Shown: positions 6,778 through 44,791 of the stretch, one piece after another
How positions within the stretch are numbered: position 1 is the first letter of the stretch
Layout of the letters: every line of letters begins with the position of its first letter
NCBI RefSeq assembly: GCF_003334255.1
Contig: NZ_QOWU01000015.1
Reading direction: 5' to 3' (one strand)
Length of the DNA stretch: 64,000 bases
From: Escherichia coli
GTDB lineage: Bacteria > Pseudomonadota > Gammaproteobacteria > Enterobacterales > Enterobacteriaceae
Notes under the pieces: generated by a model
Databases searched by the model: none
Told to the model about the DNA's origin: nothing
Seen by the model: only the letters and a program-made list of their open reading frames with translations
Translations under genes and position numbers: made by a program

Positions 6778-8628
6778 ATGGCCTTATTACAAATTAGTGA
6801 ACCTGGTTTGAGTGCTGCGCCGCATCAGCGTCGTCTGGCGGCCGGTATTGACCTGGGCACAACCAACTCGCTGGTGGCGACAGTGCGCAGCGGTCAGGCC
6901 GAAACGTTAGCCGATCATGAAGGCCGTCACCTGCTGCCATCTGTTGTTCACTATCAACAGCAAGGGCATTCGGTGGGTTATGACGCGCGTACTAATGCAG
7001 CGCTCGATACCGCCAACACAATTAGTTCTGTTAAACGCCTGATGGGACGCTCGCTGGCTGATATCCAGCAACGCTATCCGCATCTGCCTTATCAATTCCA
7101 GGCCAGCGAAAACGGCCTGCCGATGATTGAAACGGCGGCGGGGCTGCTGAACCCGGTGCGCGTTTCTGCGGACATCCTCAAAGCACTGGCGGCGCGGGCA
7201 ACTGAAGCCCTGGCAGGCGAGCTGGATGGTGTAGTTATCACCGTTCCGGCGTACTTTGACGATGCCCAGCGTCAGGGCACCAAAGACGCGGCGCGTCTGG
7301 CGGGCCTTCACGTCCTGCGCTTACTTAACGAACCGACCGCTGCGGCTATCGCCTACGGGCTGGATTCCGGTCAGGAAGGCGTGATCGCCGTTTATGACCT
7401 CGGTGGCGGGACGTTTGATATTTCCATTCTGCGCTTAAGTCGCGGCGTGTTTGAAGTGCTGGCAACCGGCGGTGATTCCGCGCTCGGCGGCGATGATTTC
7501 GACCATCTGCTGGCGGATTACATTCGCGAGCAGGCGGGCATTCCTGATCGTAGCGATAACCGCGTTCAGCGTGAACTGCTGGATGCCGCCATTGCAGCCA
7601 AAATCGCGCTGAGCGATGCGGACTCCGTGACCGTTAACGTTGCGGGCTGGCAGGGCGAAATCAGCCGTGAACAATTCAATGAACTGATCGCGCCACTGGT
7701 AAAACGAACCTTACTGGCTTGTCGTCGCGCGCTGAAAGACGCGGGTGTAGAAGCTGATGAAGTGCTGGAAGTGGTGATGGTGGGCGGTTCTACTCGCGTG
7801 CCGCTGGTGCGTGAACGGGTAGGCGAATTTTTCGGTCGTCCACCGCTGACTTCCATCGACCCGGATAAAGTCGTCGCTATTGGCGCGGCGATTCAGGCGG
7901 ATATTCTGGTGGGTAACAAGCCAGACAGCGAAATGCTGTTGCTTGATGTGATCCCACTGTCGCTGGGCCTCGAAACGATGGGCGGCCTGGTGGAGAAAGT
8001 GATTCCGCGTAATACCACTATTCCGGTGGCCCGCGCTCAGGATTTCACCACCTTTAAAGATGGTCAGACGGCGATGTCTATCCATGTAATGCAGGGTGAG
8101 CGCGAACTGGTGCAGGACTGCCGCTCACTGGCGCGTTTTGCGCTGCGTGGTATTCCGGCGCTACCGGCTGGCGGTGCGCATATTCGCGTGACGTTCCAGG
8201 TCGATGCCGACGGTCTTTTGAGCGTGACGGCGATGGAGAAATCCACCGGCGTTGAGGCGTCTATTCAGGTCAAACCGTCTTACGGTCTGACCGATAGCGA
8301 AATCGCTTCGATGATCAAAGACTCAATGAGCTATGCCGAGCAGGACGTAAAAGCCCGAATGCTGGCAGAACAAAAAGTAGAAGCGGCGCGTGTGCTGGAA
8401 AGTCTGCACGGCGCGCTGGCTGCTGATGCCGCGCTGTTAAGCGCCGCAGAACGTCAGGTCATTGACGATGCTGCCGCTCACCTGAGTGAAGTGGCGCAGG
8501 GCGATGATGTTGACGCCATCGAACAAGCGATTAAAAACGTAGACAAACAAACCCAGGATTTCGCCGCTCGCCGCATGGACCAGTCGGTTCGTCGTGCGCT
8601 GAAAGGCCATTCCGTGGACGAGGTTTAA
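6778..8628 (+). CDS. hscA: HscA Hsp70-type chaperone
   Basis: 616 aa from ATG 6778 ([10 protein letters not shown]); Hsp70 signatures IDLGTTNS and DLGGGTFD. Confidence 0.95.
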
Positions 8629-29898: not shown

Positions 29899-31511
<1,613 letters not shown>

Positions 31512-36231: not shown

Positions 36232-36423
36232 CTAACGTTGTACCGGTGATTCGACGGAGAGTGTGGATTGCTGAGCTTCTTTTTTGCTCTGATGGTGCTG
36301 CCAGGCACCGACGGACGAGTAGATAAAACGGCCAAAGAAGAAGATAAAGCTGATGAGCAGTACGATACGGGTCATGCGACTGTTAAATCGGTGTCGTTTT
36401 CGCATACTGGTTGCCTGACTCAC
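36232..36423 (-). CDS. yfgG: YfgG, small membrane protein
   Basis: 63-aa ORF with one TM segment (IVLLISFIFFFGRFIY). Confidence 0.75.
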   Translation of the reverse strand: MSQATSMRKRHRFNSRMTRIVLLISFIFFFGRFIYSSVGAWQHHQSKKEAQQSTLSVESPVQR

Positions 36424-36633
36424 AAAAGGTTCCTTGAAGTATGTCCCACGCTGTGGACGGTACTTACATTAAGGCACAACAGGACAAAATGGTCAATTCT
36501 TCGTTATGTAAAAAAGCGTCAGTGGATACATATTTTAATGTTATGGAAGTTAATTTAATTATTTACAATGATGATGTAATAATGATGAATTAACATGATA
36601 AACGTAATAATTCATTAATCAGGGTTATTTTGT

Positions 36634-36674
36634 TTGATATATATCAATTGGTACTTTCATATGACACTTAGAAT
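36634..36674 (+). promoter_or_regulatory. FNR-dependent class II promoter of pdeF
   Basis: Perfect FNR consensus TTGAT-atat-ATCAA at 36634-36647; -10 TAGAAT at 36669-36674, which places the site near -41.5. Confidence 0.65.
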
Positions 36675-36774
36675 CAATGCTCTCTATAGTGATGAATAAT
36701 CATCATTCGAAGTCAGGTGGGATGCCTGTCTGAATACACCTCCTTCAGGATGTGGGGGATTCTGCTGAGCATCT

Positions 36775-39018
36775 ATGAAACTGAATGCAACTTATATAAA
36801 AATACGTGATAAATGGTGGGGGCTTCCGCTGTTCCTGCCTTCTTTAATCTTGCCCATTTTCGCCCACATTAATACTTTCGCGCATATTTCTTCCGGTGAG
36901 GTTTTTCTCTTTTATCTGCCTCTGGCACTGATGATCAGCATGATGATGTTTTTCAGCTGGGCGGCATTGCCAGGGATCGCCTTAGGGATTTTTGTCCGCA
37001 AATATGCAGAGCTGGGTTTTTACGAAACGCTATCATTAACGGCTAATTTTATTATCATTATCATTCTCTGTTGGGGCGGTTACAGGGTCTTTACTCCCCG
37101 GCGTAACAACGTTTCACATGGTGATACCCGTTTAATTTCCCAGCGTATATTCTGGCAGATTGTGTTTCCTGCAACGCTGTTTCTGATACTTTTCCAGTTT
37201 GCTGCATTTGTAGGATTACTGGCGAGCAGAGAAAATCTGGTCGGTGTCATGCCTTTTAACCTCGGGACTTTAATCAATTATCAGGCCTTACTGGTGGGTA
37301 ATCTGATCGGTGTCCCGCTGTGCTACTTCATCATTCGGGTAGTGCGAAATCCATTTTATTTACGTAGCTATTATTCGCAATTAAAACAGCAGGTTGATGC
37401 CAAAGTCACCAAAAAAGAGTTCGCGCTCTGGCTACTGGCATTAGGTGCTTTATTGTTGCTGTTATGCATGCCGTTAAATGAAAAAAGCACAATTTTTAGC
37501 ACCAATTATACCTTGTCATTATTGCTGCCCCTGATGATGTGGGGAGCGATGCGCTATGGTTATAAGCTGATTTCGCTGCTCTGGGCGGTCGTGTTGATGA
37601 TCAGCATCCACAGCTATCAAAATTACATTCCCATTTATCCTGGCTATACCACGCAGCTGACCATAACCTCCTCCAGTTATCTGGTATTCTCTTTTATTGT
37701 CAATTATATGGCTGTACTGGCAACCCGTCAGAGAGCGGTAGTCAGACGCATTCAGCGGCTTGCGTATGTGGACCCGGTGGTTCATCTGCCAAATGTTCGC
37801 GCCCTGAATCGCGCGTTGCGTGATGCCCCCTGGTCTGCGCTTTGTTATTTACGCATCCCTGGCATGGAAATGCTGGTTAAGAACTATGGCATCATGCTGC
37901 GGATTCAATACAAGCAAAAACTTTCTCACTGGCTGTCACCCTTGCTGGAACCGGGTGAAGATGTTTATCAGCTTTCGGGTAACGATCTCGCGCTGCGACT
38001 GAATACAGAATCGCACCAGGAGCGCATTACCGCACTGGATAGCCATCTCAAGCAATTTCGTTTCTTTTGGGATGGCATGCCGATGCAACCGCAGATTGGC
38101 GTCAGTTACTGCTATGTGCGCTCGCCAGTGAATCATATCTACCTGCTGCTGGGAGAGCTAAATACGGTCGCCGAACTTTCCATCGTGACCAACGCCCCGG
38201 AAAATATGCAGCGTCGCGGGGCAATGTATTTGCAACGCGAATTGAAAGATAAAGTCGCGATGATGAATCGACTACAGCAGGCGCTGGAACACAACCATTT
38301 TTTCCTGATGGCCCAGCCGATTACCGGTATGCGTGGTGATGTTTACCATGAAATTCTTCTGCGCATGAAAGGTGAGAATGATGAACTGATCAGCCCCGAT
38401 AGCTTCTTGCCGGTCGCACACGAATTTGGTTTATCGTCGAGTATCGACATGTGGGTCATTGAGCATACGCTGCAATTTATGGCTGAAAACAGAGCGAAGA
38501 TGCCCGCTCACCGTTTTGCTATTAATCTGTCTCCAACCTCGGTATGTCAGGCTCGTTTTCCTGTTGAAGTCAGTCAGTTGCTGGCTAAATATCAGATTGA
38601 AGCGTGGCAACTTATTTTTGAAGTCACCGAAAGTAATGCTCTGACCAATGTTAAGCAGGCGCAAATCACCTTGCAGCATCTTCAGGAATTAGGCTGCCAG
38701 ATTGCGATTGATGATTTCGGCACCGGCTACGCCAGCTATGCGCGGCTTAAAAATGTGAATGCCGATCTGCTTAAAATTGACGGCAGTTTTATCCGCAATA
38801 TTGTGTCAAATAGTCTGGATTATCAGATAGTGGCATCGATTTGCCACCTGGCGCGAATGAAGAAAATGCTGGTAGTGGCAGAGTACGTTGAAAACGAAGA
38901 GATCCGCGAGGCGGTGCTCTCTTTGGGGATCGATTATATGCAGGGTTATCTTATTGGTAAGCCGCAGCCGTTAATTGATACGCTGAATGAAATCGAACCC
39001 ATTCGCGAAAGTGCCTGA
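36775..39018 (+). CDS. pdeF: PdeF (YfgF), MASE1 / degenerate GGDEF / EAL c-di-GMP phosphodiesterase
   Basis: 747-aa ORF: N-terminal multi-TM MASE1-like region, degenerate GGDEF (SGNDL), EAL-type domain with the signature E-I-L (HEILLRM). Confidence 0.9.
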   Translation: MKLNATYIKIRDKWWGLPLFLPSLILPIFAHINTFAHISSGEVFLFYLPLALMISMMMFFSWAALPGIALGIFVRKYAELGFYETLSLTANFIIIIILCWGGYRVFTPRRNNVSHGDTRLISQRIFWQIVFPATLFLILFQFAAFVGLLASRENLVGVMPFNLGTLINYQALLVGNLIGVPLCYFIIRVVRNPFYLRSYYSQLKQQVDAKVTKKEFALWLLALGALLLLLCMPLNEKSTIFSTNYTLSLLLPLMMWGAMRYGYKLISLLWAVVLMISIHSYQNYIPIYPGYTTQLTITSSSYLVFSFIVNYMAVLATRQRAVVRRIQRLAYVDPVVHLPNVRALNRALRDAPWSALCYLRIPGMEMLVKNYGIMLRIQYKQKLSHWLSPLLEPGEDVYQLSGNDLALRLNTESHQERITALDSHLKQFRFFWDGMPMQPQIGVSYCYVRSPVNHIYLLLGELNTVAELSIVTNAPENMQRRGAMYLQRELKDKVAMMNRLQQALEHNHFFLMAQPITGMRGDVYHEILLRMKGENDELISPDSFLPVAHEFGLSSSIDMWVIEHTLQFMAENRAKMPAHRFAINLSPTSVCQARFPVEVSQLLAKYQIEAWQLIFEVTESNALTNVKQAQITLQHLQELGCQIAIDDFGTGYASYARLKNVNADLLKIDGSFIRNIVSNSLDYQIVASICHLARMKKMLVVAEYVENEEIREAVLSLGIDYMQGYLIGKPQPLIDTLNEIEPIRESA

Positions 39019-44594: not shown

Positions 44595-44791
44595 GACTGC
44601 TTTACACAACCTTTTTGCACGTCTTTTCCCCAGGCGCGCGGCGAAAGAAGACTTGTGCCAGGGCAAAGGTTAGTTTTCGGATGGAATAATCTTCTTTCAT
44701 AACCATTTGAATATAAAATAACTTTATCTCAAACCGTTATCATTTTGACTAAAGTCAACGAAAATAATATTGCCGCCTTGAAGAAAGGAGG

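Follow-up and report, generated by a model that had tools for sequence, protein, structure and literature searches.

The palindrome TTGAT-atat-ATCAA upstream of pdeF (yfgF) in Escherichia coli very probably serves as the operator in a sigma-70 promoter of class II that is activated by FNR and drives this gene. The palindrome was analysed within a 64,000-nucleotide stretch of DNA, hereafter called the window, and the coordinates of the features are collected in Table 1. The FNR site, its position, its regulator and its occupancy in vivo are already published, and the element itself is nothing new. Novel relative to the published pdeF promoter are a conservation test across 23 promoters and a connection with the H-NS/StpA findings of Myers 2013. 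Moreover, the box serves as a positive control, as an experimentally validated class II FNR promoter that is recoverable from sequence alone.

Table 1. Features of the pdeF promoter, leader and gene, in coordinates of the window
Feature	Position	Strand	Remarks
yfgG-pdeF spacer	36424-36774		351 bp, AT-rich (34% G+C); inside much longer in vivo H-NS-bound regions
FNR binding site, palindrome TTGAT-atat-ATCAA (TTGATatatATCAA)	36634-36647	+	centre 36640.5
Box-to--10 gap	36648-36668	+	21 nt, without usable -35 hexamer
Overlapping consensus-type promoter candidate ATGACA-18-TATAGT	36661-36690	+	from promoter scan; rival or secondary promoter
-10 hexamer TAGAAT of the FNR-dependent pdeF promoter	36669-36674	+	named as -10 in PMC3718329
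Predicted transcription start	36682	+	inferred arithmetically from the published -41.5 plus box coordinates
pdeF 5' leader	36682-36774	+	about 93 nt; predicted from the inferred start
5' hairpin, palindrome GTGATGA-ataa-TCATCAT	36688-36707	+	per-sequence folds
Invariant block CAGGTGGGATGCCTGTCT	36714-36731	+	hairpin 36712-36730, GGA 36720-36722
Second GGA hairpin	36739-36758	+	GGA 36748-36750
Invariant GAGCATCT	36767-36774	+	directly before ATG
pdeF (yfgF) CDS	36775-39018	+	747 aa; MASE1-(degenerate GGDEF)-EAL c-di-GMP phosphodiesterase; gene under regulation

The 421 bases at 36380-36800 are 100% identical to K-12 MG1655, and the annotation of this identical DNA confirms pdeF as the downstream gene, as a sequence-only reading of the window had named it. 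The region is carried by 5423 of 5426 complete E. coli genomes. In the RefSeq annotation of identical DNA, guaB and guaA are followed by yfgI, yfgH and yfgG on the opposite strand, then by a hypothetical ORF of 50 aa, pdeF and, again on the opposite strand, ppx. The first ATG of the pdeF ORF lies at 36775, with an in-frame TGA stop two codons 5' of it, and the domains of the protein correspond to Pfam PF05231 and PF00563, as matched on homologues. The 50-aa "hypothetical protein" WP_000017552.1 of RefSeq occupies 36441-36593, between yfgG and pdeF; at E. fergusonii and Citrobacter loci (L081-L085), no gene is called where it would sit, and it probably reflects a false gene call in AT-rich sequence. 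In addition, a hairpin followed by a T-run that resembles a terminator (GGTGGGGGCTTCCGCTGTTCCTGCC TTCTTTAATC) lies at 36815-36839, 40 nt within the pdeF CDS. One such element was found against 0.4 expected, and it is likely a chance occurrence.

The arms of the box, TTGAT (36634-36638) and ATCAA (36643-36647), flank the central atat (36639-36642), and all 10 defined consensus positions match, so that the perfect FNR box claimed from the letters is indeed perfect. The distance from the box centre to the first base of the -10 is 28.5 nt, and a start 7-8 nt past the -10 (36681-36682) gives a predicted centre at -40.5 to -41.5. The same reading had placed the -10 TAGAAT at its position in Table 1 and the box about 41 bp upstream of the predicted start; both coordinates and arithmetic are right, and the published description of the E. 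coli yfgF promoter is of an "FNR box at -41.5 (TTGAT--ATCAA)" and a "-10 element (TAGAAT)" (PMC3718329, Green laboratory). With spacers of 16-18 nt, the candidates for a -35 agree with TTGACA at only 0-1 of 6 positions, and a weak or absent -35 is what is expected for an activator-dependent promoter.

Several further observations concern the DNA around the box. An AT-rich block, AACGTAATAATTCATTAATC, lies at 36601-36620, approximately 60-80 bp 5' of the start. It recurs as (A)AGGTAATAATTGATTAAT in Citrobacter, in E. fergusonii and in further relatives, and as GCGTAAAAATTAATTAAT in Phytobacter, whereas Salmonella retains only a part; H-NS nucleation or binding of a second regulator are possible roles. 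Among the matched E. coli genomes, 1577 have a core promoter identical to that of K-12 and 2734 carry at least one difference, which makes the K-12 sequence the minority allele. The commonest core-promoter SNP, T36653A (TTGGTACTTT to TTGGAACTTT), falls within the 21 nt that separate the box from the -10 and leaves the box itself untouched. Furthermore, E. coli strain ES6 (L090, 1-183; approximately position 36650 of the window) carries an IS1 between the FNR box and the -10, at the junction ...ATCAATAAGTTGGAGTCATTACC/GGAACTTTCATATGACACTTAGAAT. This insertion cuts pdeF off from the FNR site and constitutes a natural test of FNR dependence.

pdeF loci were gathered by scanning species-representative genomes and by exact look-ups of homologous proteins, and the resulting 23 promoters represent at least eight enterobacterial genera. 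They are drawn from six Escherichia lineages (E. fergusonii, E. whittamii and cryptic clades among them), Salmonella enterica, four Citrobacter, two Enterobacter and two Phytobacter species, several Kluyvera and further relatives. All 23 promoters carry TTGA[TC]-N4-[AG]TCAA, exactly 21 nt and then TAnAAT at the corresponding place. Alignment A2, which has a mean column identity of 63%, shows no variation in its TTGA, TCAA and TAnAAT columns. The orthologues differ in the N4 spacer (ATAT, TTAA, GTGT, GTAT, TCAT, TCAC, GTGC, ATGC, TTAT and CATA), and the flanks drift too. Judged from these alignments, the box, its spacing and the -10 are under selective constraint with a free central spacer, and this pattern is what a dimeric FNR site would leave when its distance to a -10 is fixed. 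The Salmonella promoter (L080) was recovered independently as TTGACTTAAATCAA ... TACAAT and equals the Salmonella variant TTGAC--ATCAA/TACAAT reported in PMC3718329. In other words, the unit of box, 21 nt and TAnAAT is fixed across Enterobacteriaceae, which extends the published comparison of E. coli and Salmonella.

As reported in Tables S5 and S6 of Myers 2013 (PMC3688515), an FNR peak lies at yfgF/yfgG and was called by three ChIP-seq peak callers as well as by ChIP-chip. The motif under the peak, TTGATATATATCAA, is the same 14-mer (PatSer 16.08, ln p -14.9; Table S6), its score ranks among the higher ones in excerpts of that table, and yfgF is given there as the likely target of the divergent pair. 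FNR ChIP-seq, which the sequence-only reading had put forward as a check, thus comes out in its favor. Moreover, "FNR yfgF Activator Anaerobiosis" is an entry in the table of a curation paper, a survey of all GGDEF/EAL proteins describes PdeF as undetectable aerobically, "which is induced anaerobically", and FNR-dependent anaerobic induction of yfgF was described by Lacey, Partridge and Green in 2010 (Microbiology 156:2873), as restated in PMC3718329. An entry for yfgF was also looked for in ArcA ChIP supplements and was absent from them.

The expression data of Myers 2013 qualify this picture. In exponential glucose-minimal culture, yfgF expression is unchanged by fnr deletion, and the gene is filed in Table S9, which holds peaks without expression change, as well as in Table S11 (PMC3688515). 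In an hns stpA mutant, the FNR peak average at the site rises from 0.35 to 1.68, and only in this mutant does the tabulated +O2/-O2 ratio of yfgF reach 0.23, an approximately 4-fold anaerobic induction (PMC3688515). H-NS ChIP-chip regions in Table S3 of the same study span the FNR site at 2627088, from 2626274 to 2628408 anaerobically and from 2624400 to 2628963 aerobically. Table S6 gives "None" for H-NS/IHF/Fis overlap at this site, which is inconsistent with the regions of Table S3 (PMC3688515). An "HNS" flag is likewise set on the yfgG-pdeF spacer in Shimada 2014 (PMC3946193), and the general conclusion of Myers 2013 is that FNR access is restricted by nucleoid proteins (PMC3688515). The anaerobic, FNR-dependent expression of yfgF/pdeF that the earlier reading had cited therefore stands in published work, but without removal of H-NS and StpA, exponential glucose-minimal culture shows no fnr-dependent change. 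Because fnr deletion has no effect under these conditions and output appears only when hns and stpA are deleted, FNR is required but does not suffice. Collectively, FNR is the switch, and silencing by H-NS/StpA, and perhaps more, decides the output.

Two further FNR ChIP-seq-bound motifs listed by Myers 2013 fall within the window. One, TTGACTAAAGTCAA, lies at 44745-44758 in the purM/upp spacer. The other, GTGAGCGAGATCAA (reverse complement TTGATCTCGCTCAC), lies at 31482-31495 in the xseA/guaB spacer and adjoins the xseA start; it is a half-FNR, half-CRP hybrid with one mismatch from the CRP consensus.

The promoter scan returned a single sigma-70-type site, ATGACA-18-TATAGT, which matches the consensus at 10 of 12 positions and is closer to it than the FNR-dependent promoter, and identical hexamers were predicted for yfgF from RpoD-holoenzyme genomic SELEX (PMC3946193). 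If this were the working promoter, transcription would start at approximately 36697, FNR would sit at about -56.5 in a non-class II position, and expression would be largely constitutive. We consider this improbable. A single site falls short of the 2.3 expected in shuffles of the AT-rich region, and the RpoD SELEX assignment is a sequence prediction inside a low-resolution peak. Furthermore, ATGACA and TATAGT are confined to Escherichia, whereas TAnAAT keeps its fixed place throughout the set of orthologues, and the published start puts FNR at -41.5 (PMC3718329) rather than at about -56.5. The failure to detect PdeF aerobically also argues against a strong constitutive promoter.

The assignment of the ChIP peak to the divergent pair yfgF/yfgG raises the alternative that the site serves yfgG, alone or alongside pdeF. 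According to Myers 2013, yfgG is approximately 2.2-fold higher anaerobically (aerobic/anaerobic 0.45, Table S12), and sigma-70 shows a strong anaerobic peak close to the yfgG start (2627279, approximately position 36456 of the window). The geometry speaks against this, as the yfgG start codon is 217 bp from the box centre and the box lies approximately 180 bp upstream of the predicted yfgG promoter TTGACC-17-CTTAAT, beyond the usual activation positions. In a text search of the supplementary tables of Myers 2013, yfgG was found only in Tables S5, S6, S7, S9 and S12 and not in Table S8, the table of FNR-dependent operons. Since Myers 2013 names yfgF as the target and it is the pdeF -10 from which the box keeps a constant distance, a role of the box at yfgG is very improbable.

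CRP is a paralogue of FNR and recognises related targets, and the palindrome could be read as a CRP site, with pdeF responding to cAMP-CRP instead of, or besides, oxygen. The 16-mer TTTGATATATATCAAT (36633-36648) matches TGTGA-N6-TCACA at 7 of 10 positions. However, matches of this quality occur 179 times in the window against 215 expected, so that the loose fit to CRP suggested in the sequence-only reading is no better than chance. The G of the CRP site is absent from both arms, which carry T instead (TTTGA on the left, ATTGA mirrored on the right). The G:C pair of GTGA, as opposed to TTGA, is what tells CRP sites from FNR sites. In addition, all 23 orthologous promoters keep TTGA[TC]/[AG]TCAA without drift toward GTGA, and the occupancy in vivo reported by Myers 2013 is that of FNR. 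Control by CRP through this site is thus highly improbable.

Regarding chance, a pattern search of both strands found the perfect TTGAT-N4-ATCAA only once in the 64 kb, against 0.11 expected, and 11 of 100 whole-window shuffles contained at least one perfect box; by these window statistics alone the box is therefore only mildly unusual. One-mismatch FNR-like boxes at 6944 and 18236 were set aside, their frequency being at chance level. For the local expectation, the 351-bp yfgG-pdeF spacer (34% G+C) was simulated 200,000 times with a first-order Markov model. A perfect box arose in 0.4% of the simulated spacers, and a box followed by TAnAAT at 20-22 nt in 9 of the 200,000 (4.5e-5). Although TATATATA-type runs are common in AT-rich spacers, a functionless chance palindrome has a practically negligible probability given these local figures, and it is excluded because the half-sites are invariant in at least eight genera, with only the central 4 nt varying, and FNR occupies the site in vivo.

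Anaerobic FNR carries a [4Fe-4S] cluster, forms a dimer and binds TTGAT-N4-ATCAA; oxygen converts or destroys the cluster, and the dimer dissociates. For the class II FNR-dependent promoter of pdeF, an FNR dimer centred at approximately -41.5 would replace the missing -35 and recruit RNA polymerase to TAGAAT by direct contacts. With oxygen, the dimer would be lost and the promoter would fall silent. A coat of H-NS/StpA on the AT-rich spacer may lower FNR occupancy and keep the promoter off in fast-growing glucose-minimal cultures. From the ChIP and expression tables, we infer that H-NS works by occluding or trapping the pdeF promoter.

We also set the pdeF promoter beside known systems. The published E. 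coli K-12 yfgF promoter (PMC3718329) is the same object, with box, -10, stated position at -41.5, gene and regulator all equal. With canonical class II FNR promoters (ydfZ and the downstream site of yfiD/grcA; Myers 2013), it has in common the half-sites, a predicted centre near -41.5, the lack of a -35 and a ChIP peak. Unlike these, the pdeF promoter has a perfect box and yet shows no effect of fnr deletion in exponential glucose-minimal culture, its output being gated by other factors. Similar to the H-NS-masked FNR promoters that make up Category 7 of Myers 2013 (hlyE and ttdR among them), it lies under H-NS cover, and its FNR occupancy and anaerobic induction increase without hns stpA. In contrast to Category 7, however, the masking at pdeF is only partial, because an FNR peak is already detectable in the wild type. 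Finally, class II CRP promoters, with their site at -41.5, involve a homologous activator family and a 2-fold symmetric site that overlaps the -35, but the half-site at pdeF is TTGA, not GTGA.

The leader downstream of this promoter is more conserved than the promoter itself (alignments A2-A4). The segments CAGGTkGGATGCCTGyCT (36714-36731) and GrGCATCTATGA (36767-36778) are invariant or nearly so in at least eight genera, in which the PdeF proteins are only 57-76% identical. In E. coli, an 85-nt stretch of the leader is single-copy and identical in 5360 of 5408 genomes. The 5' hairpin folds in 21 of the 23 sequences, and it does so from unrelated sequence (for example, CCGCG...CGCGG in Kluyvera), which suggests that the stem-loop is conserved. 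The invariant block folds into a hairpin with a 5-nt loop, GGGAU or UGGAU, and the GGA is kept in all rows of the alignment.

The hairpin at 36739-36758 changes its inner pairs by lineage, from CCUCC/GGGGG to CCCUU/AAGGG, CCCUC/GAGGG and CCCAC/GUGGG, and in 22 of the 23 sequences the individual fold leaves the second GGA unpaired; one lineage is without this GGA. By pair count, 84% of the cells of this covarying hairpin are paired, compared with 25-54% in slid controls. The covariation is modest, at 0.111 against 0.082 for shuffles, and 11 of 500 shuffles scored as high. From the MAFFT alignment of the leader, RNAalifold yielded the invariant hairpin alone and no compensatory pairs; differences in loop length misalign the hairpin at 36739-36758. 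The fold of the K-12 leader is no more stable than those of shuffles (z = -0.33), and a scan of 36400-36900 against Rfam returned no family, the two hits being noise (E = 1.4 and 9.8) far below gathering scores.

Three other candidates in the leader were tried and rejected. The long-range helix between GGAUGC (36720-36725) and GCAUCU (36769-36774) in the minimum-energy fold of K-12 suffers uncompensated changes in three lineages. The three-codon mini-ORF ATG CCT GTC TGA (36722-36733), which lies in the invariant block behind AGGTGGG, has ATA as its start in 2 of 23 sequences, has lost its stop in 3 of 23 and keeps no conserved frame to pdeF; it is probably not a conserved feature. The likeness of GATGC/GCATC to NsrR half-sites is weak, and yfgF does not appear in the main text of the CFT073 nitric oxide/NsrR paper.

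The arrangement of the GGA motifs resembles targets of CsrA. The leader carries two GGA motifs, both in hairpin loops, at 28 nt from each other and thus within reach of one CsrA dimer, which is pattern evidence only. Leaders of c-di-GMP genes under CsrA control are known from dgcT/ycdT and dgcZ/ydeH (Jonas et al. 2008, as cited in PMC5635695). Like these, pdeF has the mRNA of a c-di-GMP enzyme with two hairpin-loop GGA motifs at such a spacing, both RGGAUG in K-12. Unlike CsrA-controlled leaders, it has no GGA over the ribosome-binding region, as none occurs in 36759-36777, which covers the Shine-Dalgarno and start region, and the second GGA is missing from one lineage. yfgF/pdeF does not appear in the supplementary tables of a CLIP-seq study of CsrA in E. 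coli, and the literature on yfgF/pdeF with CsrA held incidental co-mentions only. The cultures used for CLIP-seq were reportedly aerobic, a state in which pdeF is off.

These blocks of the leader lack annotation and lie outside the finding on the box. Based on their pattern of conservation, we tentatively raise the possibility of a second control layer, in which the leader with its two GGA hairpins is a candidate platform for CsrA or another RNA-binding factor that would gate translation or mRNA stability. If true, such a gate would help to explain how a perfect class II site can be occupied by FNR without FNR-dependent output in exponential cells. PdeF links oxygen sensing to c-di-GMP, and a post-transcriptional gate on it, if true, would be a small but real addition to this network.
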